DNA from: Botryllus schlosseri
Taxonomy: Eukaryota
Assembly: GCA_051294905.1 (NCBI GenBank)
Contig: CM119371.1
Location: 14,696,001-14,760,000, forward strand
DNA length: 64,000 bases
Direction of reading: 5' to 3'
The first letter of the stretch is position 1; each line of letters begins with the position of its first letter. Of the stretch, positions 9,670 through 48,806 are shown one piece after another. The notes under the pieces were generated by a model. The model did no database searches, had not been told where the DNA came from, and saw only the letters and a list, made by a program, of their open reading frames with translations. The position numbers and the translations under genes are program-made.

Positions 9670-10200
9670 CCGCTCGCACGCGGCTGGGAAAGCGGGGGTG
9701 GCGAGCGGCTTTTCAGACCCCCCCTTCCGCTCGCACGCGGCTATTGTGTCTTATGGTCCCTCTCGCACGGTAACTCTTTTCAGTATAGGGATCGCTCGCA
9801 CGCGGCTGGGAAACTCGTGTTGGCATGCGGCTCTTATGTCTTATGGGTGCGTTGGCATGCGGCTATTGTGTCTTGTGGTCGAACGGTAACCCTTTTCAGT
9901 ATAGGGATCGGTCGCAAGCGGCTTCGTTGTTGGCATGTCGTACTTTCGCGCATAGGCGGTGGCGATGATTCGCCTGTCGTGTATTCTTACGGGATCTGTG
10001 GTGACTCGCCATGTGTTCTTATGGGTGCGGGCGCATGCGGCTATTGCGTCTTATGGTGGGGGTGACGAGCGGCTCTTATTTCTTACGACGGGGGTCGTGA
10101 GCGGCTGGGAAACCCGGGGTGGCAAGCGGCTTTTATGTCTTATGGCGGGGGTGGTGAGCGGCTATTGTGTCTTATGGATGTGGTCGTGATTCGTACTTTC
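9670..10200. repeat. GC-rich degenerate tandem repeat, core GCGGCTATTGTGTCTTATGG
   Basis: About ten degenerate copies, interleaved with CGCTCGCACGCGGCT and TTTTCAGTATAGGGATCG blocks. Confidence 0.85.
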
Positions 10201-10236
10201 GGTATAGACTGCGGGTGGTATGTCGTACTTTCAACA

Positions 10237-14000: not shown

Positions 14001-14174
14001 GCATGCATTAACATTTGAACAACGATCTTGTTTCGTCGCACCAAAAACATGTTCACTGTCACAATACTCTGCACAAGACGTGGAAATCCTTTTCACCCTC
14101 ATAATAGTATACCAACGACCACCGACGACAACGTTTAACAATACCAACGACACTGGAAATACTGAACCCACGAC

Positions 14175-14945
14175 ACTTACCCGAGTAAAAACACATTTTC
14201 CTTTGGCTACATGGCGCTTACCAGAGTAAAAAATATCATTATCACCTGGAGATCCACCGTTACCCGAGCAACAAAACCATTTTCCTTTGGAGATCTATAG
14301 TTTACCCAGTGTAACAATACATTTTCACATGGCGGTCCATCGTTTACCCAGAGTAACAAAACCATTTTCACTTGCAAATATATTTTTCCCTGGGTTACAA
14401 ACCATTTTCACTTGCAAATATATTTTTTCCCTGGGTAACAAACCTTTTTCACTTGTAAATATATTTTTTCTCTTGGTAACAAACCTTTTTCACTTGGAAA
14501 TATATTTTTTCTCTTGGTAACAAACCTTTTTCACTTGGAAATCTATTTTTCCCAGGGTAACAAACCTTTTTCACTTGCAAATATATTTTTCCCCCTGGGT
14601 AACAAACCTTTTTCACTTGGAAATATATTTTTTCCTTGAGCAACAGACCATTTTTACTTGGAAATATATTTTCCCCCCCGGGTAACAAACCTTTTTCACT
14701 TGGAAATATATTTTTTCCTTGAGCAACAGACCATTTTTACTTGGAAATATATTTTTTCGCTGAGCAACAAACCATTTTCTCTCGGCGGGTCGTCGTTTAC
14801 CTGAGTAAAAATATCATTTTCCTTTGGAGATCTGGCATTTACCCATTGTAACAATACATTTTCACTTGGAAATCTGTCGTTTACCTGAGTAGCAATACCG
14901 TTTTCACTTGGAAATCTATCTTTTCCCTGGGTAACAATACCATTT
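14175..14945. repeat. ~39-40 bp minisatellite
   Basis: Unit GGGTAACAAACCTTTTTCACTTGGAAATATATTTTTTCCC; homogeneous in the centre, degenerate at both edges. Confidence 0.92.
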
Positions 14946-16313
14946 TCGTTTTGAAAACTGACCACCACACCGGTCAATTTGATATTTTTGTATATTGTTA
15001 CAACGAACAGTGACAAAATATACACCAACAACGACTCCGATACATTTGTGTAATCGCATACTCACTTGTTCTGGTGCATCCCATCAAAATTGACGGTTAG
15101 CCACACACACACACACACACAATAACAACGCGCTATTTCGATATGACGGCGGTGTCCGGGTTCGTGCTTTAGATTTTCCAGAATCAATCCGTCTGAAGTT
15201 GTAATCCCGCGACTTTGTTAACTGGTTGATACACGCATAACAATCTTCGGAAAATGTGGGAATGCATGCTACCCATTGTGCGCACGATTCCAGGTTACTT
15301 GTGATTAATTTCCTTGCTCACACTATACAGATTATACGTACAGTGATATGTAGCGGTAATCGGTTTGGTCAATACATATCGCCCCATTTAGTATGGAATT
15401 ATAAACCCAACACAGGTCAGTCCATAACCGGATCCGGATATTCAATGCAAAGCGATAAAGCAGAACCAATGACCAAATGTAATTAAACATGTAGATTCAC
15501 AACCCTTGGTTTTTTTTTTCGTGAAAAATGACAATACATATCGAATATATTTCACGAGAGTTCAACCCTACCAAGTATTCACGTAAATGTGGTTTATGAC
15601 ATTACATACAATGTGTCGGTGTACAAATGTTGGGTGTTTATGCACACATCGGTATGACCTATAGACAACATCATCATACCCTCCAGGACTTCGTTATTGC
15701 ATCGCGAGTTCAATAAAATCAATTTTGTATATTCAATCGGTGGCATAGACGACGGAAGGCTTGGAGATCCAATGTAAAATTCAGACAAACAAACGGGTAT
15801 ATTTGTCCGTCTTGGTTATGCACTCAACTACCATTGGTGCTCTCGATACAGCGAACGGTACAGTATGCAACGCATATCATTATCAATATTTCGTCAATAT
15901 TCCGACTAGCCCACAACCTTTGCAATTGATGATCAAAGTCTACCGTTGGAAGAATCGGACGTGACATTATCTCTGATGTGTTCGCCGGAGCACATAGCCT
16001 ACATCCATTGGAGCCCAATTGGTTATTGCTTTGATGAAGTCCGCCAATTGCGTAATTCTATTTTGATATCTGTAGAGTTGAATCACGGGATTCGGCTTTG
16101 GTATGGCTGTGTGTAATCCTGTAAGTGGGCGCTAACATCGATCATTAGCTTTATTGTCGTACCAAAACAATTCAGAATAGCTGGTGCGTTTGAGAGAAGT
16201 GTATGCGTTCGCGCATTGAAAACGTGGCTATAAGGCAGTCGTTTGCTAATATTCCGTGTCCCGTAGAGATAATCAAATACTTATTAACTTACGTGCAACC
16301 TTAACATTTGTAG

Positions 16314-16438
16314 TGTGTATGAAAATTATGAATTTTACGAAACAAGGAGTATGGTGGTCGTGGTCGCATTGGGTAATGTGCAGAGGTGGCCAACGTACTC
16401 GGCGTTGCTACTCATTGGAAGTCGAAATAACGCCATAA
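16314..16438 (+). other. TSP1-repeat-like exon remnant
   Basis: After acceptor tttgtAG the frame reads GVWWSWSHWVMCRGGQRTRRC (WxxWxxW...C.GG.R.RRC), then stops at 16436. Confidence 0.4.
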
Positions 16439-16714
16439 ATTTCTACTCCATTGCAATGGAAAGTACCAATTTCAAGGATATGTTAAAACAACTTCAAGTA
16501 AAAGTACAGAATGGAGGTCTCATAAGTCACAAGTACCAAAATTGATAGTTCTATAAAGTAGATGCAATCGAGAAGTGGCATAATTTAGCAATTAATCGTG
16601 GGTGTCTACTTCTGGCATTGCCAAATGCGTTTTAGCGACGAACCCAAAATGAAAAATGATACTAGAAATAGGTGCACTTTCCGAAAATAAATTCAGTTAC
16701 CGTGATACATGGGC

Positions 16715-16870
16715 TGTTGTTTGTGGTGGGCATGGCATTTGTCGACTACTATGTTCATTTACAGCAGGCCCATATATTCTTTATTATAATTCCGTATCTG
16801 ACGACTTGTAGCACGACCCTTGCAGCGTCTTTTCAAGAGACCGCGTACGCGGATTAGGTGGCGAGGAGGA
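16715..16870 (-). mobile_element. SINE 3' fragment
   Basis: Reverse complement of the family tail (TTGTTTGTGG..TTTGTCGACTACTATGTTCATTTACA..GGCC..GCGAGGAG). Confidence 0.65.
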
Positions 16871-17632
16871 GTTTCGTCTAAATACTCGTTACTGAAAGAC
16901 ATGTAACTGACCTAAAGCACACGTTTCACACATACAAACAACGCACTTTACCCTTGACATATGTCACCGTGTTTAGGAGTGTATGTGACTTATTGATGTC
17001 CGGGCTACGCCCATATTCGAGTTTGCTTCATGCTCAGGCCGCGTAGTTCCGTCTCTTCATCGCGGGGATCGGATTCGCAATTTAGAACAATCACGATCAA
17101 GCTACACACTATAGAAATGATCCCTAAAAATATGATCTTAGTTTGTCGAGTCCAGTCGCGCGGTGATACTCGAAAAATGATATATAGCTTTAATGGTGAG
17201 CAGAGCATCGTATTTCTCTCTCTCTCCATCCCTCTACCTTTCTTCGCTGCCCACATGCGGATCGCTGATTTCATTCTCTAATCTGGGAGAGTTGAGACTG
17301 CTCTTGCATACGGATGGTAAAGTGAATTTTATCGCCCAACAAGAATTTCTGCTAAGCGTGTGATTATAAGTCTGAATGATAGACGAACGGGGCTACCGAC
17401 GGGATGACACATGTATGTATGTATATACATGGGCTATTTCGCCCGGTCGTTATGACGATTTCACAAATAAAGGTGATGTAAACGTACCCCAAAACTATTT
17501 CCTATTTCACAAAACTGAAAGTGTGAAAAATATGTAGTTTTGCTTAACAACTGAAACTGTAACCATTTGAGTATACTTATATACTTATACCACTTGAGTA
17601 CCGATACTGAATAGCTTACATCACGTTTCCAG

Positions 17633-17767
17633 ACCAACGAGGGTGCTTCGCTCCGAACGAATTGGGCAATTGTGAAACGCTGTCCAAGTATTTCTGCAGC
17701 AACACTAACGCATTCCACTGCTGTAATGGGGATAATTGCAATAGCCAAGATCCGCTGCTGAACTGGG
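17633..17767 (+). CDS. Exon: C-terminal half of Ly6/uPAR (three-finger) domain 1
   Basis: QRGCFAPNELGNCETLSKYFCSNTNAFHCCNGDNCNSQ (RGC...CCxxDxCN); bounded by tttccAG / GTGAG. Confidence 0.85.
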
Positions 17768-20700: not shown

Positions 20701-23700
20701 CTATGGGGGCCCAGGACCAACGTTTTGGGGGGGGGAGGCTGACGAAGTGCTGTTACGGCCCTGACTATTATGTACTCATCGTTTTAAAAGCTCCGAAGAT
20801 ACCAACAAACTTGGTGAGTTACGTGACTGATTCATCGGTTGAGCTGTCGTGGGATCCCATTTGCATCGGAGATTATCGTTATGACGTAGAATATGCAAAA
20901 TTGCTTGGCGGAACAACTGCAGGTCAAGACCACACAACAGTCGCGGTATACACGAATGCGGTGAGTACTGAGTAGGCATATATGTGGATTTGCTACTACG
21001 CAGTTGCGAGATAGTCATAATCACTAAAAAAAACTAGGTGGAATGGGTCCTACAGCTTTGTAACAGAAGCTGGGCGCGACCGTTCGAATAGTCGAATGGA
21101 GTAGCTGGAGTTGATATTTTCTATTGCCGAAGTTATGACCCTTCCGTCTAGGAATTGTGTTTGCTGTAACGACGCTTATATCGCACCGTGAGACTATATC
21201 TAAGCCATTTTGATTCCATTGTTAGTGAATGGTTGTTACTCCGACTCTCTGATGTAATCGCATAATGATATACTTACTTAAATACAATTTTCTGGTCTTC
21301 TTTCACTGCGTGTGACATCTTAGTTACTTGTATTAGACTGTTCAGCTCGATACTAAAACTGGACTCAAAAAGAAGGAAGGCATGTCAAAATATATTAGCT
21401 ACCATCTTTCACCATCTGCATCGCCCAGTTGTCATGGCAATTTTTCATGCGAAAGCGATACAAATCTCCCCACGTACTACGCTCTACTATTGACAAAACT
21501 TGAAATATATAAATGAATTATGTTTGCTGCGGAAACTGTCGTTGAAGTAGAAGTGGCAGTGATCTAACACGAAACCGCTTGAGTAAGCTAAGTAGCAAAA
21601 TTGCACAAAACTTACTTGAGTATTTCGCAAATAGGATTAGGCTACTTCGTAACTGACCAAGTGACCATTCCTGACTGTTGTGGCTAGTTTCGATCCACTA
21701 AAGTCAAATATTCGTACGGGACAGAAACATTTCTTTGCTGATACAATGCATCTATTTACCAGATCGAGGTTGGTTCGCTGGAATCCGGAAGTTCGTACCT
21801 TTTCCGGGTGAGATCATATCACGGCGGAGTTTTCAGTGCGGCCCAGGCTGTCGAGGCCTCAACACTCGCGACATCAACAACAACAGGTCTGTGAAATGTG
21901 ATAGGGTGAAGACATCGTACGAGAAATCATGGTGCAGATGTTGACTGTTGTGGTGGTAGGTCGTGTGCAGTAGCGCACTCGGGAAAGGTTGGTTTTCGAA
22001 ACCGAAACCGCGACCTTCTGAAACGCCAATTACATCTCCAATATGTAGAAGCAATGTGTTTAAGCGACTGGTATTACGCTGTTGCGTATCGGTCGAACAA
22101 TTCGATGACACTTTCCAAGGTGTAGCGGTGAAGCCTCCCATTTGTGAACTGATGTCTGAATGGAAACAGTAGAAGTCATAGTGATTTTCGATAAATATTC
22201 ATTATAATGTTCTATTTAGTAAAATGTTTTCGTTCTTTTAACACTCTGTTGATTAACCTGATGTACAGTTCATTTTATACACCAGTAATCTATGGTGATG
22301 TATTAGATGTCTAGTTAGATGTGGATTGCGGTAGATTTTTGTTCTTATGACTCGTCGAAAATTTCGGGTCTACGAAGGCTTGCAGTTTAGAGTAACTGTT
22401 CCGCGGGTTGGTAAAGATTAAGAACCACTGATCTATAAACAGAGGGAGTGCAAGTGCTCGGCGATGGTAATCAAATAGAAGTAGAATCAACGCCTGATTT
22501 TTCAACTCCATTACAAGTTGCCATTTCCAAGGCATGTTAACACTACTTCAAGTGGGAGTACAATATGATTGGTATTAAAATCACTAGGGTTTACCTTACA
22601 CAAGTTAGAATTACGGAAAGTTTTTGTTGCAGTTAAATACGTGGAAAGTTGCACTTATTATTCACAAAAGTTGCATTTATGGACAGGTTCCCTGAAATTT
22701 TTAGGGTATGAGCAGAGGTGGTCCGTAACGAAGTACTTCTACTTTTTCGAAGTACTCAAGTAGTTTTCCTCTACTTCTGGTACTTACTCAAGTAGATCTT
22801 TTTCCCGATACTTCTACTTTGTAATATTTTGTGAACTATAATTACTTACTTTACGCTATTTTCATTTTGTCAAGTAGAAGTAGTTTAATCCCCCAAGAAG
22901 ATAGCCAAAGGAATTTCTGGGCTGTTTTCACGTAGTACCAACATTTAATTTTCAAGTCATGTAATACCAAGCATTTTCGTTGTGCTTCGCGCCAATGTTC
23001 CCTCTAAGCTGCGCACGTGCGCAAATGCGCAGTGCTGAAACGGTCTCTGCGCACAGAAAATCAACGCTACGCACAAAAAATCAGAAATGATGTTTTTTTT
23101 ATAGTTGTTGCGCACTGTTGTCCAATGGACCGCGCAGACGCGCAGATTCGTGAAAATTAAGATGGAACATTGCCAGGGCCAAATAGTGTTATCACTGAAG
23201 TCTGAAACCGAAGTACATAAGTGCGCCCTGCAAAGGTAACTATTTGCGCTCCGTGAAGAAATGAGAGTTCACAATCACCTGCGCCTCAAGGCAGATATTT
23301 TTTTTAGTATGGCCTCGTACACGTGAGCGATACTGATATCATTTCATTAGCGCATTATTTGCTGGGAATGGGGAAATAGCATGGTTTAACAAAGTTATAA
23401 ATAACAACGGGCTAGCTCGAAGTTAATCTGCGAGAAACTAACGAATGATAGTCTTCTCCGCGTGGCATGGACATTGCGTAAGATTTACTCAGGACCGTAA
23501 CTTTCGCACCCCAAACCCCCCAATTGGAGGGGCCGAGCTCGAAAGGGGTCCAAAATTATTTCGAGAATTAACACAAATCATGGTGTATTTTTTGAAATTT
23601 TTCAGGAATTTTTTTTTCGCGCTACGCGCATTTTATTATTCTAAGATATCTGATTATTGGGCACCCTTTCCCAACAAAAATTAGGCATGATTAATAGAAA

Positions 23701-26700
23701 TGGGCAGTTGGGCGTCGGCCATTATCGCACCATGACGCGCCAAGACATATGAAGTTGAAGGCTATGTAACATGCGATTTCAAGGAGTGCGCCAGAACGAT
23801 CAGCAGCGAGAAAACCTTGGGCGAAAAAGACTGCCCTGGTGCTGACCGAAAACTTCGATATATACAAATATATGTGTAATTGTCAGGGCTGTGGAGTCGG
23901 AGTCGGTGGAGTCGGAGTCGGGTCGATTTTCGCTTGATGGAGTCGGAATCGGAGTCGTGAAAACTATAATAGCTGGAGTCGGAGTCGGTGGGAAAATACT
24001 GACTGACAGTTTGTGAGAATGACTATGACTTCGACTCCGACTCGAACTTCTCTATCATGAAAACATTTGCTTTCAAAGAATTTTCAATATAATTTTTATG
24101 TACCACCAATCACTTTTAAAATTAACCATACAGATCAGGCGCGGCCAGCCTGTGGCACGCAGGCCAAATTTGGCACACGAGAAAATTAGGTGTGGCCTGC
24201 GAGGTAATTCTCGAAATTATTTACGACATCAGGTACAATTGCAAGGCCAACCAAAATTTGATTAGCATGACCGCGAAATTTGATGATGACTAAAACAACA
24301 GTTCTGACGCATTGACGTATCCAGGGGTCAGCCACATTTATCCCATATCTTCGTATATGACCATGAAGTAGAATATTTCATAGCAGATTTATTTGACTTG
24401 AAATTTTTCTCGGTACTTCGCATGATTCATTGTCGCTAGATTTCTTGCATTCAGTATTTGAGCCCCTTCTGAAAATTATAAATACATATAATTCACAGAA
24501 TTGAGTCTATTTATATTCTCAATTAGGAGATACGGCTTCGCTTGTGCACTCGCAGCGAGATCGTCGACAAAACATTTGCACAAAATGATAGAGGCATGTT
24601 CACTGACACCGTCGATTTTGCTGTCTAAACGTCGAGACGGGGTGTCCGAGAAAACAAAGAATTAGTATCGCATTATTTCCATCTCAATGCTATTATTTAC
24701 ATCCCATGATGTGGACGACTGCTTATTTTGTCAAAAATTGACACCTCCTGAGATGTATCAATATGAATCAAGCTCTCTACCCCTTCCTAATAGCTTCATT
24801 TGCAGCTTTTGACAGTCCATGCGAACGAATTACGATCGTTTTCACAATTACTTACTTACTTGAGTAGATTTAAAGTCAGTCAATTCTACTTCAAGTAGTT
24901 TTAGGTTGCTTATTAAAGAAGTACTTCTACTCGTACTTGAGTAGATTTTTCTTCAATACTTCTACTTCTACTTGAGTAGCTTTCTTGACTACTTTGACCA
25001 CCTCTGGGTATGAGATACCGGAATGGTTCCGTATCGAAGTCACTCCGGCAAAAAACCAAATGTTGGCGACACCAACATAATCAAAATCCTGAAAAAAGTG
25101 ATCCAGTGAAAATATAATTTCTGGCGGACTGGCCTGAATGTACGTCTAATCAAAAAAGACCTCAAATTTAAACGACGGTGAAATAATCAAGCGATCTATT
25201 TACATAGAGTGCCAACTATTTTCCAGTTGCATGAAAAATAGAAGAAAAAAAACTTGCAAAATATTGCATGAAAATTGAAAAATGTTGCAAGATTCCTTCA
25301 AGCAGTTTGAAACACAATACTACACAACTTCTGAGTATTTAGGAAGCTGCCAGAAGTTGTAAAAAAAGTTGCAAAAGTTGCCAAGATTGCCATTAATAAC
25401 ATAATGCATTTTGCAGTTAATCGGAGATGGGTACCTTCGAAATTGCAGGTTGCGTCTGCTGTCTGCACGGCTAACGCAAAATCACTAATGACGATGCAAA
25501 TAGGTAGAATCCTCGAAAATATGTTCTGTTAACGTGATACAAAGGTATTTCACGCGATTCTTAAAAATGATGAAAACCTTTCCCAAAAGTACCATCTGCT
25601 TTTAAAATCAAAATTATAATAAATTATCAGTTTTAGCAGAGTGGAATTTGTAAATGCTACCGGGCGAGTCATGTGATTGCTTGTTAATATGGACTTTGTA
25701 TTATGGGCCCTTGATTCATGGTGCGAAATGACTTGGTAGTCGGTGCACCAATTTCCCCTTATTCAACCAACCAACCACCACTTCATGTATGAAGGATTCC
25801 GATCTGGCAACCTGCATACATACGGTTAAGTCAGTAATTCCTACAATCCCATTCCAGGGGCAAAGTGCTGGGTGACCGACAGGTATTTCGAAGCTGAAAA
25901 CTACTTGAAGACATGTCCTAATTCCGGTGACTGGTGCTTCACGCAAGCCGAATACTTCGCGAATACTTCGGAACGGTATTATATATATGGTTCGTCGTGT
26001 CAGTACACGATTGGCGCAAATATTTTGACGAGTTGTTCGGCTGTGTTTTGATTTTTTCAAGTCGAAGTAGAAGTAGCACCATAAATTTCTACTCAATGAC
26101 AAGTAGCAATAAAATTAGCAATTTCGAAGACACGCCAAACTAGAAGTAGAAGTAGAAAATGATGATCTGAAATGTACTCGAGCACGTATGTCTTAAAAGT
26201 AGATTTGGTAGTTGGTTGCATACTTTTGACAGTTAATCGGAAATAAAAAATATTTTTTTTTATCAAATTAATGCACCACGATATGGTGATATGAGGAGAA
26301 GATAAAAAAGTGGTGCCGAAACCCCTTGTTTGTTTGTGGTATTCATTGTGTTTGTCGACTACTGTGATTTTTCACACCAGGCCGATATCGGTAAGGCTTT
26401 TCTAGACACCGCTTACTCGGATGAGCTGGCGAGGAGCGTAGGTAAACTTCCAATATTGAGGTATCGGAATTCTGAAGTAGGCCTCGGGCGGACTCGAACC
26501 CGCACCCATTGGTGTTGCAGTCGCGAATTATACCACTGCGCTATATTGCCAGTCTCTGAAGCGACTTGCAGCAGTCTATTATTCAGACACCCCCTTTGGT
26601 CTACAGCGTGTATAAATAAGAGGCAAGCACAGTGTATTTGAAAAAGGATAACATAAAAAGAATCAAGATGATCAGACACGCTACGAAATTTATACTGTGT

Positions 26701-29700
26701 TACCTAGACACGGCGGTGATGACGCCGAGTTGTCATGAAAATTCCGTTTGGTAAAAATGATGCAAACTTATCCCAAAACTAATTTCTACTTTATAAAATG
26801 CAAAGTGTCGATAGTAAGTAGTTTTGCCAAAAAAATCTACTCGAACAGAAGTGTTAGTAGTCTCAAAGCATAACCACTCGAGTATCGAATAAATTAGAAG
26901 TACTTCGTTATTGGTCACCTTTGAGTGGGTTAACCATTCTCATCGGCCATGAAATTAAAACAAAACACTAATGACCTTCAAGTTAAAACGTCAATACACT
27001 GACCACGAGAGAAACTCTACTAGCTATCAGCAATACCGGGTGGTGAGCTATGGCGTAATTTGTTCAACCTATTCAGGCTTCATTCGAGAGGTTGCATGAG
27101 CGAATCTGATTGTCAGAAATACGTGGCATCCAATGATAAGGCTTGTAAGCCTGGAGAGATCGGGGCGGTGTGCCACTTTTGCTGCAAAGGGCAATACTGT
27201 AACACAGTAGAGTGGACCTACTCTGGTAACTACCCTCTTTCTGTCCATTGATACCATGAAAAGTATCAGTTGCCACAGCTAATATGCGTTTACCGACAAT
27301 ATACATGTTTCCCGGTAGGATTAACCTGCGAAAATATACCCGTCGAGGAACGTATACATTGCGGATGGAGCGGTATGCCAATAGCGGCTTGTCTTCAACG
27401 TGGGTGTTGCTACGTGCCGTCCAATGATACAACGGCGTGGTGTCATCACGGAAAATGTAAGATATCGTCACGTGCACTTCGTTGTAGCCAAGTAGTTTGC
27501 CAAAGTATGTACGGCCGATTTGAATAGGAACGCAATCAGAGGTGATCAGTAACAAAGTACGCCATTTGGGGGGGGGGGTACTGGAGTAGATTTAGCCTAT
27601 ACAGTACACCTGATACTTAATGCTTGAATAACTGCTTCGTGGTACAAAATTAAAGATTGCTTTCATCAGAATATCCATGGTCATAGTAGGGCCTACATTA
27701 ATTATCACTTGAAGAATTATCGGGTGGATCTGTTCAAGAGTTATCGCCACAGTAAAGGGATTCAAACAGATTCAAGGGTAAACCCAATATGGTACAGTAT
27801 GACGTAACCCAGCGGTCTCGAACACGCGGCCCGCGAGACCATTTTGTACGGCCCGCGACGGCATTTTGGATTTCGACGTACTCGACAATATTCAATAAAC
27901 ATTTTTTTTAATTCGAGAACTTAAATTTCGCTCTAAAACTACTCCAGAAGCCAGAAACTACTCATCAAACTTCACTATTACATCACTTTCAAAATTTAAG
28001 ACGCAGCGGAAGCTTATATATAACGTGACACCACTTGTTTAAGATGGTTAAACGTGACCCGTTAATAATTCGTACTGAAAACTCTGATTTGGACTTCGGT
28101 GCTATCTTTTGTAGAATTACTCGAACTCAATGGGTGATAAAATAAAAATGACTTGAGTTGAGTCGCGTCAAAAGATACAATGACAGAAGTACTTTTGTGA
28201 CGTGGAACGCCGTGACTTGGTACAACCACGGACGAAACAAACTATCAAGCAGATATTGAAAATAGTAAAATATCAAAAGGTCGTGGCTTGCGTTTCGTCG
28301 CTATTTAGATATCTAAGCAGGTCGGTATGGTAACCATGTATAGTTGTTTACATCCTGCGTCATTTTGGGTATCTTTATCCATGTTATTTTCGCCAATTAA
28401 ATGTGGCGAGTATAAAGTAGTCGTAGCCTACGCTTCAAATCTGTAACACAAATGGATTCTTCGGCGATTAGACATTTTTATTGCTATATGGCACAGTAGT
28501 CGACATATTCAAGTTGTCATTGATCTGTTCAAATATTCGAAGATAAACCTAACGCTGATTTAATTTGATTTTGGTAATGACATGATCAATAGCCTAGTTA
28601 TCAGGAGTATACCCGGGACCCGGATTAGGCTGTACTGCTCCAATGCTCTGATATCAAATCAATCTTTGTAAAATTATAAAATTCTACCTCTCTAATTGCA
28701 GCACGTCAAATGTCCGCTGAGCTGCAAAATTATAACGCGACAGCTTTTACGATGTCCTGATGCATTTGTTCTCTCGCGTCTACAACTAATTATTTTGACA
28801 AATTATGCAAAGTAGGCCTACAGCAGCAATTTTATTGAAATGTCTAAAAATGTTATTTTTTCGTGCCAAGCGTGAATTCACGATAGTAAATCACATTTTT
28901 ACGATGCGTGTGGAATGTCAGTCTGAAAGGTCCCATCAAATAAGACCTACTTGGAAATACATTGAATTCCCCTACTATTGGTGCTGCGGCCCGCGGTGCC
29001 AGCAAAAAAGAAGGAAATTGACCCGCGAGCACATTTGAGTTTGAAACCTCTGATGTAACCAATAAACTTACAAAACATGAAATTCGCATTGTGCAATACT
29101 AGCAACGACAATTGTTGAAACGACAACGGCACATACAAAACAAAGAAAACTAATGGGGCATTTGTAAATTACACAGAAACACGTTTCAATCTTGATGACA
29201 AACTTCAGTCATTGCCTACGTTAAATGGATACGAGTTTCAGCCGAAAATATTCGAGTATATTTCACTATACATGTATTATTATATTTGTAACACCCGCGA
29301 TTCGGCGTAGGTGCCGACTGTTACAATCAATTACCAGGGTGTCACAAATTAAATTTTATCGACAACAGGGCCCTAGATAGCCTACTCGGCGTCTTCATGA
29401 CATTTTCGGATCCATGCTATCACTTTAGAGACGGAAACAGTATCCGAATTGGATCAGGATTTTATCTTATCGAACATGATTTCATCCGAACCGCGTAAAT
29501 CTTGACGCGTTCCTTCCTATTGACCACATGATGTCAAACTTATTGTTTCATTGCAGTTCCTGCTGCACCGGCGATCGCTCAGGCACAGTCTCTCAGCGCG
29601 TGGGTGATTGTGCTGATAGTGCTATTTATCCTATTTCTGATCATTGTCGTCGCCATTATCGTATGCTGTTGCCGGAAAAGACTAAGGGTGGATTGCACAG

Positions 29701-32700
29701 ATGTCGATTAATCCCTAATCGCCGATTAAACGTCAGTAATCGGCTGGCTTCCGTGGCACAGATGCCGATCTGCAACTAATCGGTGAATTTTAATCGGCCA
29801 AATGTTATCCGCCGAGAGAGGTGTCTAGAAAGTTAATCGGCTGTGTGCTTCGCGTTGACTGCGGTCCGGGCAGGCTATAGGTACACTAGTATTTGGTATT
29901 GAGATGGTGTTAACTGGATGCTCTGACGTGCAGTTGCGGTATTACTTGAAAATATTGTACTCAGACACTACTACAACTGTTGGCGCATATTATGGGCGTG
30001 GGCCTACCACAGCCGATAGTACCTTATGCTATGATTACCGGTATGACATTTTTTACAGACTGTACACTGTACAGAATTCGATAGTATACTTTGGTAATAA
30101 AATACGAGGACGGAAAATTGCAACAGACAAGAAGAGTTTAGAATAATTGAATTGATAGAAGAATATATTGAAACCAAGGAAGACAAAAAGACTGATGGCA
30201 AAACAAAAGATGCGGCCTGAGATGTAATGAGTAAGAAATATGCAGCTATGAATACTAGTCCTGCGCGTGCAGCCGTACAACTGGCCAAATCCAGAATGTA
30301 TTGAAAAATTTGAAACGAAAAGCAAAAAAGACATATGCATCACAACGCGTCGAACGGGCCAAAACTGGCCCACCTCCAGTTGACGAACTCCTTGGAAAAG
30401 GTTTTTGATAGGAAATTTTACTGGCAATTCTTTAAAATTCGCAGTAGGAGATGTATTGTTTCCATCCGTGTGTATCGTGACTCTCTGCGTGCTTCATACT
30501 CACGTTTTAACGCTCGTTTTGAACTGAATAGACAAATTTTGATGATCATGAAAACATGGATTTATTGTATTTTTGTAATTCCCAACAAACTAACCATAGC
30601 CAGAGACTGCTGCACGTCATCAGCTATACGAAAACGACACATGGGGAACACTGCTCGGCAAATTCCTAATCTGAAATTGATTTTTATAGCACTGGTATAT
30701 TTATTATCACTTTTCAGACCTTCTTCCATCTCAAATTGAATGTTTGAAACATCGGTATGACTACGATTGCGTATTCGATAGTCACATGATGGTGAGTGCA
30801 TTTAGGACATCAACTTTTTTAATATGTTACAACCAACGGCAGAGGAACTTGCATCCAATTTTAACTTGCAACAGTCTGGCTTTGTTACTGTGCGTGTGCA
30901 GGTGCCTGAGCAGTATCGTTGGCCATTATTATTGTTAGGCTTGCAACTTGACTTGAAGATTTGACTTCGAGTCAGGATTTCTCATACCGTATGTCATATT
31001 GAAGCAGTGACTCGAGTCAAATCCATTCATCCTATTACAACTCGAGTCAAGTCATGATTTTAGTCCTCCATGCTTCCTATGTTTCGCGGGGTTAAGATAA
31101 ACCGTGAAAAAATCATTTGAAAGTAACTTATCTAATGTATTTCTAACTAACATTTTTAAATAAAATGTTTATTCAGATGCATATTCCGAAGATTCAGTTT
31201 GCACCTTCATCATCGACGAGGATGTGAACACAGAGGCTGGTTCTTTATGTCACAACAGCGATGGTAAGTTGAGGTACTAATTTGAAATCCATATGAATAG
31301 TGTTGGTACTAACATAGCCACACGAATACTTCAAATAGAACATTGCGGGTTGTTTTGATTGACATTAACATTGCTCTATTGAATTTGAACTCTATTGAAT
31401 CAATACAACTGTTGTTAACCATAGTTTTCTTGCAGCAAATGAAATTGCTGCCTTTTCGTTGCTGATGGCGATGTGACGCTTCCTTCAGTTCCCTCGACAG
31501 ACTTCAGGATGGAACACCAGACCGGTAAGTGTTAGCATACAAAGATGGTGATGCAACCCACAGTTTATTCATTACTACATTCAGATATGCAAGATGAAAC
31601 AGAGAACACAAAAAGCTCAACGGCAATTGTCTTGAAAAAGAGAGCCAGGTGTGTTGCTGAAAAATCATATTTTAACTATAATGTTGGTGATCAAAATGTG
31701 GTGTTCAGAAATGAGCGTCCTGGAAATGGCAAAGAAGCAGCATGATATCAGAATGAAATATTTTGAATTACAGATGCATATCAAGTACCAGAAACTGGAA
31801 ATGGAAAAAGAACTGCAAAATTGAGAAAATACAGCAACAAATCGAAATAGCACAAAAACCAGACTTGGACAACTAGTTAATTGGCTGTATAATTAGAATA
31901 GTAAGTGCAAAATGCCAGTAATATATTTCTAACTTAATTTATGGTTTTGCTGAAAATTCTACAGTAGAACTCTACAATACTTAGTAGAGTTGTGCAGATT
32001 TCCAAATTTTCACATATTCAGTAATCCCTATTTTGATTTAATTGAAAAATGACTACTGTGTCTATAATTATATTCTAATTTGGAAAAATATGCAGCCATA
32101 ATTATCATCATAGTCTAATAATTTTGAAAATCTGATTTTCTAGTTGTCCAATTCTGACTACAGCATAGGTTACTGGATCTCGTAATAAAAATAATTGAAG
32201 AGGAATTGAATGTGTGGTTATTGGTGTTCAAACACGAGATGAAATACTCAAGACATTGTAGAGAAGTGATTTTGAACAATCTATCTGCGCTGAAGTCGTG
32301 CTCGGTTGTGCCTTCACGTTATCGTGTCGCTAACCTCCAGGGTATATTCCGATGGATTTGCTCGGTCTTTGACCAATCTTCTTGGCACTCTCTCTTCTGC
32401 TAGGCTCTCTAACATCTGGAGGGTAGCAAGAACATTGAGGTATGGATCCATTGCTATTCTCAGTCGATATTGCACTATATTAATGTAGCTCTCTATAAAA
32501 CAGGTTGTATTGAATTTTATGGTTGACCAAATTCTTGATAAACTGAAGTGGGGTTTGGCTGTCAACAAACAAGATTACTCAACTGGGTAACAGCAGATAA
32601 CTTTGCATTGCAAAATTGTAACATAAATGCATTACTGTTGGTACAGCACTTGAACACATGTATGCATATGACTTATTATATGATAACATCGTCACATTGC

Positions 32701-33969
32701 ACAACAGTTAGATCCTTGCAATGGCTGAAATTTACTTCTACACTCCCGCAGAGCCAATTGTCATTGGTATGGAGAAATCAAAATGGTACGGTATGCAAAT
32801 GTGTGTGTATGAGCTCAATTTGTATATCTTCACATTGGTAAAGCGGCTATCATGACTAATGCACCAATAAACGGAAAATATAGTTCTATCTGAAAAGTAT
32901 CTATCTAGATCTAGATCCCTGAGTAATGAGATAAATGTCCTGCAATATACGAAATTTGTAGTAGAGTTTCTGGCACAGCAATACCGGTATAAGACGAAGA
33001 TTTCGGTACGCTATTCCTACAATACCTCTTTTCATAACCTCAAAACGTTTGTTCTGACGGGTTCTGACGTTCATAACCTTACACTGTGCAGTAGCAACAG
33101 CTTAGTTAGCTGCTATACGCACATGACATCAACTAAACATACATATCTATGAAGAGCTCATCTCTCCGTTATGACGACACAGTTCATATCGCCACCGAAC
33201 GAAAACAGCTGATTGCTAACGTACGTCATTTGCGTCGATTTGCGTCAGTAATCCGCGATAAGATAACTCACAGGCGAATCCGTATCTGTACCACAGAGTC
33301 GCCAGGTGACCTTGCTCGCTGATTAAATTATCGCCGATTAAGGCAATCGGTGATTACTTTTCAATCGGCATCTGTGCAATCCACCCTAAGAGAGAAACAG
33401 AAAGGGTCGTATGACGTTTACGCGGTTAGTATAACGATGTTAGTATTTCCTTAGGTTCGTGTGGCGGTATAGCGTAGTGGCATGTTCCACTGCTGCGACA
33501 CCAATGTGTTGCGGGTTCGAGTCCGACCGATGTCGACTCCAGAATCCCTATATCCGACTCCCAACTGGCCATTGCGGGCTGAACTAATGTTTGCACGGGA
33601 TCGTATGCCATGATAATCTATTTTGTGAACTGCGCGCACAGCCGGAATCAGTGGAACATTTCTTGCTGAAATATCCGAGATTCAGCAACTACTCACTTAA
33701 GTTCTTTTAATACGATTCACCTCTACTTCCAATTGATGTTGCTTAAACATTAAACATTTAAAAATTGCTACTTTTATTTCTACTTCAGTAGCAAGACTGA
33801 AAACTTTGACTTTTTCTGATTATTACACTAGGGTTGCGTATACTGAATTGTAAGTGCAGGGTTGCTAACGATTTACCTTCAATACCAGATCCCAAAATCT
33901 CGATGCGAAAGAGGACAGAACATTTCAACTGTATCGAGAGAATCTTACGACAACATGGTCATCGATTGA
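17633..33969 (+). CDS. Multi-exon type I membrane protein: Ly6/uPAR - FN3 - Ly6/uPAR - trefoil - TM - cytoplasmic tail; 5' end not found; TM exon disrupted by Harbinger
   Basis: Exons 17633-17767, 20791-20960, 21763-21886, 25858-25975, 27077-27225, 27319-27456, 29557-29685 + 33390-33424, and 33889-33969. All are AG/GT bounded; intron phases 1,0,1,2,1,1,0 join into one stop-free frame. Confidence 0.88.
17777..17932 (-). mobile_element. SINE 3' fragment in intron
   Basis: (GTTT)n followed by the reverse complement of the family tail. Confidence 0.7.
18340..18700 (+). mobile_element. Penelope-like retroelement remnant (GIY-YIG endonuclease C-terminus)
   Basis: SSIGKHLLDN..C..AY..DRFRI...HLCALESTFLKIRQPSLYQQKEFVYNLKI, resembling the typical PLE ORF end. 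Confidence 0.75.
19445..20763 (+). mobile_element. Non-autonomous hAT element with internal direct duplication
   Basis: TIR CAGGGCCGTAAC / GTTACGGCCCTG; TSD ACTATTAT at 19437-19444 and 20764-20771; other copies at ~23489, 58790-59971 and 63370-64000. Confidence 0.9.
20791..21886 (+). CDS. Two exons (20791-20960, 21763-21886) encoding an FN3 domain plus Thr-rich linker
   Basis: APKIPTNLVSYVTDSSVELSWDP..YRYDVEY.. | IEVGSLESGSSYLFRVRSYHGGVFS..STLATSTTT; phase-0 junction. Confidence 0.88.
22713..25006. mobile_element. hAT element with AGTAG/CTACT subterminal repeats carrying nested insertions
   Basis: TIR CAGAGGTGGTC / GACCACCTCTG; TSD GGTATGAG at 22705-22712 and 25007-25014. Nested: MITE 22993-23172, hAT fragment from ~23489, (GGAGTC)n element from 23883, hAT end at ~24137. 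Confidence 0.9.
25858..27225 (+). CDS. Two exons (25858-25975, 27077-27225) encoding Ly6/uPAR domain 2
   Basis: GAKCWVTDRYFEAENYLKTCPNSGDWCFTQAEYFANTSER|LHSRGCMSESDCQKYVASNDKACKPGEIGAVCHFCCKGQYCNT; phase-2 junction. Confidence 0.88.
26326..26550 (-). mobile_element. tRNA-derived SINE, near full length
   Basis: GGCAATATAGCGCAGTGG (A box) ... GGTTCGAGTCC (B box), then body and (AAAC) tail shared with the other fragments. Confidence 0.8.
27319..27456 (+). CDS. Exon: trefoil (P-type) domain
   Basis: CENIPVEERIHCGWSGMPIAACLQRGCCYVPSNDTTAWCHH shows the six-Cys trefoil pattern (R..CG, C...GCC, WC); phase 1-1 exon. Confidence 0.92.
27810..29052. mobile_element. hAT/Charlie-type non-autonomous element in intron
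   Basis: CAGCGGTCTCGAAC..CGGCCCGCG / GTTTGAAACCTCTG; TSD ACGTAACC vs ATGTAACC. Confidence 0.82.
29557..29685 (+). CDS. Transmembrane exon, 5' part (continues at 33390-33424)
   Basis: PAAPAIAQAQSLSAWVIVLIVLFILFLIIVVAIIVCCCRKRL after the acceptor tttcattgcAG. Confidence 0.9.
30127..30380 (+). pseudogene. Harbinger Myb/SANT-like DNA-binding gene remnant
   Basis: QEEFRIIELIEEYIETKEDKKTDGKTKDAA*DVMSKKYAAMN..RAAVQL..LKNLKRKAKK..RAKTG; the conserved Trp codon is TGA and there is a frameshift. Confidence 0.75.
32248..32451 (-). pseudogene. Internally deleted Harbinger transposase (N-terminus fused to C-terminus)
   Basis: MDPYLNVLA..RVPRRLVKDRANPSEY is joined directly to ..RARLQRR*IVQNHF; the DDE core is absent. 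Confidence 0.6.
33463..33560 (+). mobile_element. tRNA-derived SINE head
   Basis: GGCGGTATAGCGTAGTGG..CACCAATG..GCGGGTTCGAGTCCG; homologous to the copy ending at 26550. Confidence 0.75.
33889..33969 (+). CDS. Probable last coding exon of the membrane protein (cytoplasmic tail)
   Basis: Branch-like GCTAAC and acceptor taccAG; phase 0; reads IPKSRCERGQNISTVSRESYDNMVID*. Confidence 0.65.
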   Translation: MPKSRCERGQNISTVSRESYDNMVID

Positions 33970-41688: not shown

Positions 41689-44636
41689 CGTAGGGTGGAG
41701 GGTTATACAGCCACTGACAAAAAGGTCCAAAGAATATAAGTGTATGTTGATTTTATTGACCTAAGGATAGTATCGAATTCAAGCATGACTAAATAAATGA
41801 CCAAAATTCTATTGGCGTAGCAAGAAGTATGCGATTCTGAACTCTGAATAGCAGTGCAGCTGCTCCAATTTTTTGATGGTGCTACAGCGCCCCCTTGGGA
41901 ACTGCTTCTTTTGCGTAGGCTGTGCTTTGGGTCGTCATTCGTGCAGTTTCAGTACGTCTCGCGTTTTTAACACAATATTAAAAGAAACAAGTAATGTCTC
42001 GGCTTAAGATTTTCATGAAACGCTAACTTTGATGAGTAAAAATCTTTTAGGTAAAGGCATGTTTGTCGTTTACGTAGTGGTGGCGATAAGCGTCTGCCAC
42101 CCGGCGGTCCGGGTTCATAATTGGGTATATTCGCAAACAGAGGTTATTCTGGGCTCATCTTCTTCCGTGACGAAGTTCTTACGGCAACAAAAAGCCAAGA
42201 AATAGATCGGATGAAAGAGTGCACTTACAAGGAATGGAAACAGCAAACAGTGATGCGCGGATGGAGACAAAAATCAAAGAAAGAACTGCGAGATCGGACA
42301 CTAGGCCGAGGTTGTTGTTGTTGTTTTTATTAACTCATATAATTGGCGCTTGCAACTCGTGGTTATTTGCGCCCACACAGTAAATTTCATACATTTCATA
42401 ATGGCATGTCTTCTTGAACTTGAGTCTTTTTTCGGCTCATTGGCTGCCTCCTTTCAAGAGTTCGGCTCTCTCTTCTTCTGAGCTTTTCAACGCGCTGTAT
42501 TTACAGCGGGTTCGGCGATGAGGAGCCCAGATAAACCTCCGACACATAGAAACATGGCAGAGCCGAGACTCGAACCACCAACTAGGCCGAGGTGGATGCC
42601 CGTTTAAGAGACCGCAACTGCAACAGCATTTGGTCGTTCGGCATCCTCCAATCTGTTCATTACGTCGCATTATGCCTTATCGATTTGATATTGAGTGAAC
42701 ATATAGCCTACTCCGATACCTGAGTTGTCGCTGATTGCATCGTTTTGTATCTGTTCATTTGTAACTAGCACTGGCCCACGAACCCCACTTTACGCTCATC
42801 AAGTGCTTATTTACAGCTTTGTATTGTTATGTTGATGTTCGAAATTGTTTGCTCGAATATGAACGTAGACCCAGACCCGAACAGTCTTAGCTTCGCCCTG
42901 AATGCCTTTACTGTTGAGAAGATTTCGTGAGCAAAAGTACTCTTCCCTCGAAATCTGGTGTTCATTGTTCAATTCAATAATGTGTTCAAAGACATCAACT
43001 AAGAACCAAGAAAAAAGAAACTATAAGAACAAAAATAAAACAAAGAACTAAATATTTACCTAGAAGAGTCACTCTTTGTTTGATGTAGCAAGAGAGTAAT
43101 GTGGAATTGCGGCAGAGTGTGGCCGCGGGCCGCTCGAAATGCAGTCGGGGGCCGGATCCGGCCCGCGGGATGTATGTTCCCCGCCCATGTACTGAAGTAT
43201 CAGCAATTAGTATCATTTAGTTTGCCTTTTTTCTAGACTCTAAATTTCAAACACTTCTTCCATATATTTTCGATTACGGAATTTCAAATGGCCAGCCGGA
43301 GCCGGATGGATTCGGAAATGAGACCATTTCTGCTCTCCGGTAGTTCGGCCGTTAATAACTGCTGTATCGGCTTAGCCTCTTTACCAGATTTGTTATAATA
43401 TTTTCTTCCTCTGAATTACTGTAATCATAGCCAGATATGCTACAATCATGGATTTGCTCGCTGGTTGACTAATAAATTCTCTCTTTATCTCTCTCTCACT
43501 CCCGCTGGAAAATAAACAATAACATTTGAGTAGGAGAACACGCTGAGCAGACTGCTGAACATATCCAGTTGTTCAAATGTTAATATTTATATATTTGACA
43601 GCCAATCGTTGTTTATGGTGGCTTGTAGTAGTTTGTTCTTAAAGATCTAGTGGCCTTGCAGTAAATGAAGCGATAAGCGTACGGGTCGCATATCACAGGT
43701 ATAATCGGATCGTAAGCGTGAGACGGCGACAGGTCCGACAATTAACTCGCGTGACCGCGTGAGTGTGAGTCAGTAAAAAGAGAAAAATTGTGCTGGAACA
43801 AACGAGGAAGCGCAAACACACCTTCCCAGGTTCCAGTCAGTATCATTGATCTAGGAACAGGAATATCTGCATGCGAGAATGAGACAAGGATAAATACAAC
43901 CTGATGAGGTTGAACGCTGTGAATTTAGAACCCTCTCTAATGTGATAAAGAGCTAATAGAGCTCGCGGTCTACTTTTGATCTATCCTATTTCAATTTTTT
44001 TTATGTATTCTATACTAAACTGTTTGGAAGTTAGCCTGCAACTCATTTAGGACCAGTAATATGTGGGAAATCTACACAACTTCTTGAACAGACTTGACAA
44101 AATTTTTTGCTGTCAGCAATATTTGGAAGTAAGTAGATTCTAGCAAAGTCAAATTTGTTTCAAAACAGTTTCTATTGTCCAAATCAAGTTAGTGGTGCAA
44201 CTTGTCTATTAGTAGCCTACTGGTAATAGAAATTGCGACCAGAAACTGTTAAAATTGTTGAAAATTGGTATATTCTGAATGAGAGGCATTCGATAACACC
44301 AAGCAGAGTTGTAAAAAGTGAGTTTAACAAGACGTTAATTCGAAACTGAACAGTCAACACAATGACTTGGACCCGGACTCGATGGTGAATTTAAAATGAA
44401 TTGACTTGAATCTAATCAAAACTATAAAAGTGAATTGGTTGCAACCCTGCCATTAATATAGTAATACCATCGTTGGTGACCACCTCCTGCAGTTTTCCAA
44501 TGCAGGCTAATCTATCAATGTAAATCGTTTTGACAATCAACACTCCCTAATTCAATACCTGTTTATATATAATCATGTTTACTTTCAAAACAGGACTAGT
44601 CTCTATTATTGTATCCACGACGGGTGATTAGGTATC

Positions 44637-46256
44637 ATGGTACGAGTTGTACGTCCTGATGTGGAAAAGCACGCAGTTTGTATGATGGCTGAATTGCATC
44701 GAATGAAGCAAGATACCGATCATTGTGATTTTTTAATTCAAGTCGGAGATGACGTCTATCGTACCCACAAAAACGTATTGTCGGCTGGCTCCGCTTATTT
44801 TAGAGCTATGCTTAAACACGACACGAAAGAGAGTCGCGAAGGAAGGGTCGTTTTCAAAGACGTTGATTCAGAGTGTGTAAAAAATTGCATCGATTTCATA
44901 TATTCCGGTGAATTTGAGATTCCTGATGGAAGTATCGTTGAACTTCTTCACGTCGCAATTATGATGCAGCTGGAAGATGTAAAGCAAGCCGTGTCCAATA
45001 TTTTGGCGGATTCACTTACTATTGAAAATTATTTCTCTACCAGAAATGTGGGTGATATTTATGGACTGGCTGATGTTTCTTCGAGATGCAAAATATTTTT
45101 GCTCGAAAATATCTTGGATATCTCAAACCAACCTGGATTTGAAAGCATTGAAAAAGATGATCTGCTCACTCTCTTTAAATCGGAAGGATCGAAATTATGC
45201 GAAGAAGAAAAAATTGCGTTATCGCTCAAGTGGATCGACAAATGTCAAAGTAAAAGTGAATTTTTGCACGAATTTCTCAATGTAATCAAGTTTCATCTAA
45301 TATCCCTGACATATTTGCAACAGATTTTAGAAACTCACCCCCGTATAAGCAACAACTTGGAGTTGTACAAGTTATTCACTGGACATATTCTGAAAGCTTC
45401 CGTCAATGTCAAAGAGGATAATGACGCTGATAAATTGTTGATTTTTTTTGACTATCGTGAACAAGGCCTCCGATCCTTTAATCCGAGAACAGAGGAAATA
45501 GAAAAGTTTCATGATGCGAAGTGTGATTTCCGTGCATTTTTCACAGCGATATCACATGACTTATATATTTATGTCTTTTGTGAAACTAAATCAGTTCATC
45601 GGCTCAACTTTCGTGACAAAAATTCAAGATGGGAGAAGATGAATGATATGATTTGCGACCACGGTATTACTCCAAGCTCAGTTTGTTCAACCGGATCCAT
45701 AATCGTTATTGGAGGAAGTGGTTTTACAGAGAGAGCTGATGTTGAAAGATTTGACCCATCTGTGAATCAATGGTTTCTACTGCGAAACAAACCGTCAGCC
45801 ATTTCTAATGCAACTCTCGTGTCATTGGATGGTTCCATTTACTGTGTCGGAGGTTGGTGAGATGATGTCGAAGTTCCTTCGTTCTGCAGATTCACTCCAT
45901 CCACATCAGAGTGGGTTGATCTCGAGCCAATGAGATATCCTGCTCATAGCTGTGGTGTTGTTGCAGTTGATAAAAAGGTATTTGTGACGGGTGGGTATAG
46001 TCGAGAACAGACTGTCAACAAGGTAGAATGTTACGATGTCACTATAGCTCAATGGACTTCATTGCCATCTATGAATTCATATCATGGCATCAATACTGCT
46101 TATCGCATCGGTAATTGGATTTTTGTAGTGGATGTATATAGCGATTCTGATGTGATTGAGAAGTACGATTTATTGAGCAGAAAATGGTATTGTATGAAAA
46201 AACGTGATGAACTACTTTATCCCCGCGGATCTGTCATGGTGATGGAATATGGTTGA
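44637..46256 (+). pseudogene. BTB-BACK-Kelch paralogue 2 with an in-frame TGA at 45858-45860
   Basis: ORFs 44637-45860 and 45930-46256 share a frame. The sequence reads GGT TGG TGA GAT where paralogues have GGT TGG CGA GAT; otherwise it is full length. Confidence 0.9.
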
Positions 46257-48806
46257 AGGAGGACGCGGTATATTGTAAAGTGAACTAAACACGTCTGTGA
46301 GTAGATTGATGTTTAAACATGCTTTGCTGAACATGGAATAAGTCTCAGTTGTGCTGAAGCTTCAAAATGATGGTTGATTGTGTTGAAACGCCGTTTTGTT
46401 GCAGTATAGTCTGGTTGTACATCTACTTGGAGACTTATTCTTAGAGTTAGAAAATTAATATTTGTTTATTGGATAATGACCATTCGTCGTTGCAGCCGAT
46501 TGGTCTAGCAAGCATCTCTGATTATAGCGCAAGTTTTTGCAACTTTCTTACAGCTTCCGGTTGCTTCCTAAATTCTCAGAATTTATGTTGTATGATGTTT
46601 TGAGCAGTTGAAGGAATTTTACATTGCCGCTTTTTGTATTTTTCCATGCTACTTTTTACTCCAACTTTTATCAAGTATTGATAACGTAAAAGGATGATTT
46701 TAAAAACATGCGATAAAACTATTTCTAGTATGGATCTCTCTTTGATCTATGTGATTGATTAGCTGCATCTCAATGTTGTCTATGACACAATGGCTTGTGA
46801 ACTAGAAGTTCAACAACCCGTGCTAGGCACGACAGTGTCTGAACTATATGTAAATATCTTGCTTGATTGATTCACCCTCGTTTGAATTTGAGGCCCTTCC
46901 CCATTTGACAGACGCCCATGCGAGACCGCCGAAAATCACATAATCACTGGGCCACCTTTTCAAGCTGTTGATTTTGTTAAAGTCGCGAACACTGAGTTTC
47001 ACTGCAATGCCTTGGGTTAGGTTATCTCAGCTAGGGGGATTGGGATGTGGTATTTGACTTGTTGTATGGGTTATCGATTTGCTTTTTGCGGAAAGGTATT
47101 CACGTTATTTTCTTGCTGCTTCACCCGGCTGTAGCTGACAGCGAAAAGCTGTCATATAGGTTACAAACTGAAAGAACATAAAAGTGTATGCATGATCAAT
47201 TGAAAGTCAACACAACAGGATTTCTCGTACAAATCTTAGAATATAAGAAGATTTCTAGTCCAGTAATGTAACTTGTGTTCTGTAGAAAGTGTCCTCCTTT
47301 CCGAATTCCAAAATATGGTTCGGTAACCCTAAAATAAAAGTAATGCAGCAAATTTGTACTCAACGCGTCATGATCTCCCGCTAAAATGTGTATTCATTTT
47401 TACTGCAAATGGAACGATGATTTGTAATTTGAAATGCTTGCATATCGCTGGTGATCTGATGTGCAAATAATATGGCTTCTTTTTGTCTCTTCGAGTTGCT
47501 ATAGTATGTGCATGAAAGTGGAGCTTATACTGGCATTATATACATCAAATACGCGAGTTCATCAAAACGGTGAAGCTTGTATGATCCATGTATGATAGGG
47601 GTTTCCGCATCCTACTTAACTCTAATAAATGGATGCTACCATGGTAAATTTGGAGTGGTATTACACCTGTTTCATTAATCCCCGTTCTTCTCGCCTGGGT
47701 AAACTGTTATCGTAATTTTGTCACCATATATAAGCGACTAGGTTATTGGTTATATTGAAAACTTGCAAATCGGTGTAAAGGTAATTATTTAGCATTTACA
47801 TCACTTATTTGTGAATTCCGCCGCAGTATGATGTCACCTGTTTTTGATGTCATCGATCCCACATTCCTATGGAAAATTAGCGTTCGACGCTTATGTAAGA
47901 TGGTGATAAATTTTGAAATCGCAATATGTATCCGCACGACTAACGCAAAATGACCAATGACCAGGCATGTTTATTTTTGACATAAGCAAAAAATCCAACA
48001 TAGCTTATTTTCCAGATTTTATTTTTGGCAATTTTGGCGTCGCCCTGAAATCATGTTTGTAGGCTTCAATTAATCATGTAAAACGCTTTTGTTTAGGTTT
48101 TCTTATCTTTGCCATCACTCAGCAAGACTAAAAACCGAAGAAATGACGATATTTGAGAGCAAATTCATCTGATAGAAAACCGACTACTTCTGCCATATCT
48201 GATCTCAATAGTTGACTTGCTAGTTGCTACGCATGCAAAATTACGGCATTCAGACAATACACTATACCACTTGTGATAGTAACTCGAGAGGGTTTTTGGC
48301 ACGTTTGGATCACAGCATCCACTGCCAAATGAATAGTTAGAAACCACGGGTGTCTTCAATACTCAGTGTATTATTTAAACTTAGTCTATTATTTAAAAAA
48401 TTCCACCGGGCAAAGTAAAATCAATCAATGAACTTGCCTCCATCATTGTTGTTGCTTATTGTACAGCTAACTAAATGCAGGCTAAATATTTGGTATTTTC
48501 CGTATTCCTGTCCTCATTCAGTCAGATGTTTTGTATCACCAATATGTTGATCAGGGATATCCCTGATGTTGGTGATTATGTTCGATCCTTATATTCAACT
48601 GGTTTCCTTCAGAAACTTTCATTGAATGTCTCTGCAATTTTCGAAAAATGTATGATTGTGTTCCACTGTAGAGTTATCATTCAATATATATTAACGTGGT
48701 TGGTTACCAGCAGTTATCGATATAGGTTATTTTGGCGATGTGAATGATTTGTGTGTACTTTGACTCTAATCATGTGTATTTCAAAAACAGCGCGATAGTC
48801 TTCAAT

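Follow-up and report, generated by a model that had tools for sequence, protein, structure and literature searches.

Gene families that evolve by birth and death consist of tandem copies of mosaic ancestry, among which dead copies gather deletions and transposons. Here we describe a cluster of this kind in the ascidian Botryllus schlosseri, starting from a stretch of 64,000 nucleotides (assembly GCA_051294905.1, contig CM119371.1, C1:14696001-14760000, forward strand), which is called the window below and carries one copy of a gene for a predicted membrane receptor. A PIF/Harbinger transposon lies in the coding sequence of this copy, behind the codons for the transmembrane (TM) helix, and an earlier note on this DNA proposed that the insertion had produced either a null allele or a tail-less, membrane-anchored decoy. 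Our results indicate that the window copy is quite probably a recently dead duplicate that was hit by an active transposon and makes no surface protein. It shows no essential difference from the duplicated pseudogenes of birth-and-death clusters, with two disabling lesions of its own and two intact sister copies. As found, the locus captures a gene dying within a duplicated cluster, which is not surprising; it also marks a Harbinger family that is mobile at present and has an identifiable partner element.

Transposon-made decoy receptors have been described for IFNAR2-S (PMC10515820) and IL-13Ra1-LOR1a (PMC7617988). Both are expressed and tested isoforms whose TM helix is intact and is followed by element sequence instead of the cytoplasmic tail. 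The window copy shares the retained TM helix and the replaced tail. In the primate receptors, however, the decoy is an alternative splice form that uses an exonised element, is made alongside the full-length form and is conserved across primates, whereas in the window copy the insertion lies within an exon and is evolutionarily very young, the signal peptide and a complete ectodomain are missing because exons 1-2 are absent, and the structure is known from genomic sequence. If a decoy were nevertheless made, the range of transposon-made decoys, known to date from the cited primate receptors, would extend to a tunicate and to direct insertion into an exon, and paired full-length and tail-less copies would be ready for testing.

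The element itself resembles known PIF/Harbinger derivatives, which show a TWA target duplication, terminal inverted repeats, Myb/MADF and DDE genes on opposite strands of the full element, and transposase-less copies that far outnumber the autonomous ones. In the way it works, our insertion compares with Cin-dpy-11 (bioRxiv 10.64898/2026.05.26.728016), an ordinary insertion of a non-autonomous Harbinger into a coding exon. Our element differs in that its Myb remnant is broken too, that at 3.7 kb it is near full length, and that its target gene carries a second lesion. Our literature searches for Harbinger insertions into ascidian exons found none describing one.

The receptor family and its disrupted ninth exon

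Comparison of the paralogous regions gave a gene of ten exons with consistent phases. Its product, a predicted type I membrane protein with a tyrosine-bearing tail, consists of a signal peptide, an LU-like domain (two exons), an FN3 domain (two exons), a second LU-like domain (two exons), a trefoil domain, the TM helix with the start of the tail, and the end of the tail. In the 496 Mb of genome searched, there are six copies on one chromosome arm, five loci with exon 7 and a sixth with only exons 1-2; more distant copies did not appear in this genome-wide search. Two copies, P2 (C1 14.85-14.87 Mb) and P4 (15.66-15.69 Mb), have complete frames of 425 and 426 amino acids. A search with the trefoil exon returned a single match of the same domain order, the complete uncharacterized protein LOC120337675 of another species, Styela clava, which aligns end to end and is 51-52% identical to P2, P4 and the window copy; searches with exon 7 and exon 4 gave no match, and the top Atlas score was 0.82, which counts as no more than a lead. 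The tail motif KGSYDVYA is unchanged in the S. clava protein, and the second tyrosine motif is YDNM in P2 and P4 and YDRT in S. clava. The YDNM motif resembles the YxxM pattern for PI3K binding. In the S. clava protein, Pfam reports trefoil and fn3 over the cut-off and CD59 below it (E 6e-5). The cysteine spacing of the LU-like domains fits the LU (Ly6/uPAR, three-finger) pattern, and a structure predicted from the single sequence reached a pLDDT of 42, too low to be of use. A sequence search of the PDB gave no match at E<0.05, and literature searches on this receptor architecture gave no relevant description. P2 and P4 are two complete copies of an undescribed ascidian protein with an S. clava orthologue, which is useful for annotation.

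The window copy retains exons 3-10, all on the plus strand. Exon 3 (17633-17767) is the first one kept and encodes the second half of LU-like domain 1, exons 4 (20791-20960) and 5 (21763-21886) encode the two halves of FN3, exons 6 (25858-25975) and 7 (27077-27225) those of LU-like domain 2, and exon 8 (27319-27456) the trefoil domain (PF00088, E 4e-12). Exon 9 is in two parts. The first, 29557-29685 with its acceptor at 29556/29557, encodes the stalk, the TM helix, and the basic stop-transfer residues; the second, 33390-33424, holds 12 tail codons with the first tyrosine motif, which is invariant in S. clava. Exon 10 (33889-33969) encodes the remaining tail with the second tyrosine and the stop. 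All exons have AG/GT ends, and the absence of decay outside the insertion that the earlier note reported holds for the eight exons present, in which there is no stop or frameshift.

Between the two parts of exon 9 lies the Harbinger element, 3,701 bp from 29686 to 33386 on the plus strand, flanked by direct TAA copies at 29683-29685 and 33387-33389, with terminal inverted repeats that are identical at 23 of the first 24 positions. The frame of the TM exon is open through 29685, and with the element present it ends at a stop within the 5' end of the element (29709-29711) after 8 residues encoded by the element. When the element is excised in silico, exon 9 extends for 35 nt more and ends at a GTTAGT donor at 33425; the donor is GTAAGT in all four paralogues that carry this exon. 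The same four paralogues align to exon 9 up to the TAA duplication and have no element there, which is the empty state. The position behind the TM helix and the restored frame of the empty site, both claimed earlier, are thereby confirmed in every coordinate. Splicing of the element as an intron is possible on paper, as there is a GT 2 bases inside and an in-frame CAG at 33397-33399, and was rejected, the sites being weak and nothing supporting their use.

The Harbinger family and its target site

In the search for the element family, 36 of 834 candidates were scored and 55 matches were listed, among which 24 span positions 1-3701 in full with 87-100% identity. The nearest other copy, on another contig, has 1 mismatch in 3,701 bp (about 0.03%), and the second nearest differs by 2 bases and one gap. 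A perfect 3-bp target duplication flanks 12 of the 15 other copies examined (11 TWA and 1 TAG), one fetched locus having been dropped from this count when it failed the terminal pattern. A direct Pfam search of the six frames of the element, with stops read as X, matched in none of them, and tblastn with unrelated Harbinger transposase loci, ten in number, found no match in it. When the Myb-like remnant was used as the query, three loci with an open frame were found, all inside elements of 4.65 kb. The first 26 and last 30 bases of these elements are identical to those of the window element and the overall identity is about 79%; one of them has a 352-amino-acid DDE_Tnp_4 frame (PF13359) and a Myb_DNA-bind_5 frame (PF13873) on opposite strands. 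Aligned to these frames, the window element contains a Myb/SANT remnant with one stop and one frameshift (30107-30412, plus strand; tblastn E 6e-17 and 9e-19) and a transposase remnant (32260-32460, minus strand), in which the N- and C-terminal ends are fused over a deletion of about 830 bp that removes residues ~41-317, the catalytic core. The junction of this deletion is common to 14 of the 16 fetched loci.

Together with the TWA duplication and with inverted repeats beginning with G, the opposite-strand Myb and DDE remnants place the element in PIF/Harbinger, and, judged by its sequence, it is a non-autonomous deletion derivative related to the 4.65-kb element. The shared termini and the near-identical dispersed copies suggest that it was moved in trans by a 4.65-kb partner. 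The earlier description of a recent non-autonomous insertion with dead genes of its own therefore stands. The probable partner, with open DDE and Myb frames, lies at L078:1338-5987 and also on L077 and L079; a non-autonomous copy is found 780 bp away from the element on L077, and there are tandem copies on C7 and C9.

The target site also bears on the decoy reading. All four paralogues have CAA where the window copy has its target TAA, and a private A-to-T change created the sequence CTAAG. CTWAG flanks 5 of the 15 other Harbinger copies, compared with 2.5% of the 2,436 TWA sites in the window. The window gene contains 11 CTWAG sites, of which only the insertion site is exonic, and the coding sequences of P2 and P4 contain none. 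The position of the insertion needs no selective explanation, because the family prefers CTWAG and this is the only exonic one here. The clean cut behind the TM helix would thus reflect target preference and not selection for a decoy.

The missing front end of the window copy

Exons 1-2, with the ATG and the signal peptide, match four loci genome-wide, none of them in the window or in the 30 kb upstream, and residues 1-62 of the S. clava protein have no match in the window. There is an in-frame stop seven codons upstream of exon 3, and the first in-frame methionine is in exon 7, so that no protein with a signal peptide is encoded. In comparison with P4, 8,952 bp carrying a BTB-Kelch gene and exons 1-2 are replaced by window positions 9626-15885, and most of this replacement is one arm of a foldback (palindromic) element (9626-15882). 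A complete copy of this foldback element comprises a spacer and two arms of 6.7 kb each. The window keeps the outer end of an arm and breaks off where that arm ends on the inner side, which means that the borders of the deletion are the two ends of the arm. The simplest reading would be a deletion from the palindrome into its flank. The arm matches its relatives at best with 94-97% identity and over parts only. The foldback family, with arms of about 6.7 kb and 41-bp internal tandem repeats, has many near-identical copies; in a complete one, near C14:24028344-24044400, no long open reading frame of its own was seen.

Other ideas on the window copy were rejected as well. P6, the locus with only exons 1-2, is not the displaced front half of the window copy, as both carry the same intron-2 segment. 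A nonsense codon near 19280 lies in an intronic stretch. A loose scan of 9626-17600 for a substitute first exon gave four ATGs with hydrophobic runs; all four are unconserved and have non-consensus donors, and none would make up for the loss of exon 2.

With these two lesions the tail-less decoy is not supported as the main outcome, since the ATG and signal-peptide exon and the first half of LU-like domain 1 are absent. The term null allele is likewise too strong for one of six copies, two of them complete, with a second and probably earlier lethal lesion.

The time of death can be approached through the substitutions. Across exons 3-9 of five copies (P3 excluded for exons 3 and 8), the window copy has 11 synonymous and 3 non-synonymous private changes; against P2 and P4 alone, over exons 3-10, the numbers are 16 and 11. 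The private dN/dS of 0.08-0.2 differs from the neutral evolution expected of a pseudogene, and from this low value it follows that the copy died recently. On its substitution pattern, the window copy was functional until recently, which explains the absence of visible decay. A comparison of dN/dS between ectodomain and tail, proposed earlier as a check, gave 0.22 versus 0.55 and 0.16 versus 0.83 and does not decide, with 3-4 changes in the tail (1 synonymous and 2-3 non-synonymous).

It is also conceivable that the Harbinger insertion was the first hit, giving a null allele by its premature stop, and that the 5' deletion followed. In that case, read-through into the same-strand Myb remnant, with introns, would likely have triggered nonsense-mediated decay. 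The purifying signal, strong up to the present, is in line with such a course, and the redundancy provided by P2 and P4 would have let a null allele drift. However, with the element only about 0.03% from its nearest copy, a 9-kb deletion after it would have had to follow almost at once, and the weakened exon 9 donor and three private amino acid changes in exons 9-10 were already there. We consider this course unlikely. The deletion before the insertion is the likelier order, judging by the divergence of the Harbinger element (about 0.03%) versus that of the foldback arm (94-97% identity).

The death of the window copy may then be pictured as follows. The gene was duplicated, two copies being complete, and for the greater part of its branch the window copy was held under purifying selection. 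The 9-kb block with exons 1-2, now missing beside the foldback arm, may have been removed by the palindrome as the lethal hit. The private A-to-T change supplied the only exonic preferred target, into which a deletion derivative with the termini of its open-frame relative was presumably moved in trans, very recently. The insertion was most likely neutral, in a copy that would already have been silent or redundant.

Either the element or the 5' deletion, or both, might instead be mis-joins of the assembly. The arm of a long palindrome at the deletion is the kind of place where this could happen, and neither junction was spanned among the best rows of the read comparison. This comparison covered 19.3 kb of repeat-rich sequence, and its best 15 of 1,433 joints and best 16 of 112,492 pieces included none at the element junctions or between exons. 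On the other hand, a mis-join would not be expected to leave a perfect target duplication where the paralogues have an empty site, P3 has a similar independent 5' deletion, and three contigs of run X1 (191-257 bp), which may be the source sample, are identical to the window copy. An artefact is the least likely of the explanations weighed here.

Sister copies, expression, and other features of the window

Three sister copies are damaged. P3 (~C1:15343750) is without exons 1-2 and part of exon 3, by a 5' deletion similar to that of the window copy but independent of it. Through the P3 deletion, a BTB-Kelch gene runs on into the end of exon 3 in a single open frame; the result seems to be dead, given a frameshift upstream and the damage to exon 8. 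In P6 (C1:15033263 and 15036337), exon 1 is split by an 881-bp hAT-like element with an 8-bp duplication, and a 5-kb insertion lies in exon 2; no exons 3-10 were found within 60 kb. Exons of dead copies have therefore been hit elsewhere too. P5 has lost its start codon (ATG to ATA) and carries a 5-nt deletion, a frameshift in exon 8, another in exon 10 (a 4-nt insertion), and a 13,476-bp long terminal repeat (LTR) retroelement in exon 9. The retroelement is antisense, has a 5-bp duplication, and lies 21 nt beyond the Harbinger site (L032:9587 downwards into L080). Its 3' LTR is broken by a 1.3-kb insertion, and the LTR pair differs at 10 of 228 aligned bases, which is 2.2% per branch (95% range, 1.1-4.0%).

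Several observations weigh against a simple death of the window copy. P5 was independently hit 21 nt away in the same tail-coding exon, a coincidence with a post-hoc probability of about 4%, and its private changes are 2 non-synonymous versus 5 synonymous (p 0.007 versus neutrality); a copy without function from the insertion onwards should have gathered 8-16 non-synonymous ones. This constraint could mean that a tail-less form was once maintained. The deletion junction in the window copy is taken from the assembly, and long palindromes are hard to assemble. The low private dN/dS (11 synonymous versus 3 non-synonymous changes) makes the death recent, with either order of the two lesions conceivable. 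Finally, the RNA seen comes from animals not known to carry this haplotype.

For a decoy, there would have to be a haplotype with exons 1-2 whose product, an anchored ectodomain without both tyrosine motifs, is polyadenylated in the element and competes with P2 and P4 for ligand, with P5 as an older independent case. The invariance of the tail motif at 51% overall identity to S. clava indicates that the tail matters, an AATAAA at 30096 lies 385 nt past the stop with no known junction between, and the few non-synonymous changes of P5 despite its LTR insertion fit as well. Set against this are the missing exons 1-2 of the window copy, the lost ATG and exon-8 frameshift of P5, and the introns of P5, which are mosaic, with 37 sites in common with P3 in intron 3 and 16 with the window copy in intron 8. 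Exchange with live copies, by conversion or unequal crossover, can therefore mimic constraint. No transcript was seen either; RNA depth was near zero on the exon bins (3-6% of two runs, from animals of unknown genotype), and no RNA dataset was listed for 27000-29685, a negative that is given no weight here. A decoy is very unlikely on balance. The wider idea, that transposons twice independently clipped a conserved tyrosine tail in the same exon and that the ectodomain of the older case was selected for a while, so that short-lived tail-less decoys would have arisen repeatedly by this route in an invertebrate chordate, deserves just as little credence. A recently dead duplicate remains the preferred reading.

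Lancelets are reported to show presence-absence variation among defence and signalling genes (PMC12373286). At 20 positions private to the window copy, taken from 23 of the best 40 of 1,559 rows and chosen for strong support, all 20 show the other base alone in run X5, and in X1, 16 of the 20 have part of their depth free of that base. This is no more than a hint that another animal lacks the whole window copy or has a divergent one. The RNA reads in the interior of the element are assignable to the Harbinger family only; those at 31100-32400, together with molecule ends that cluster at 31908, point to transcription of some family member.

The window contains several other features. On the minus strand, at 2865-3499, lies an intron-less Gq-like G-protein alpha sequence split by a stop, which is likely a retrocopy. 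Intron-less BTB-Kelch genes, which were duplicated jointly with the receptor gene, are found at 257-1966, 44628-46256 (this one interrupted by an internal stop), 50945-52576, and 61119-62747. Two elements with long inverted arms lie at 48801-50920 (599 bp at 98%) and 55572-58318 (264 bp at 95%).

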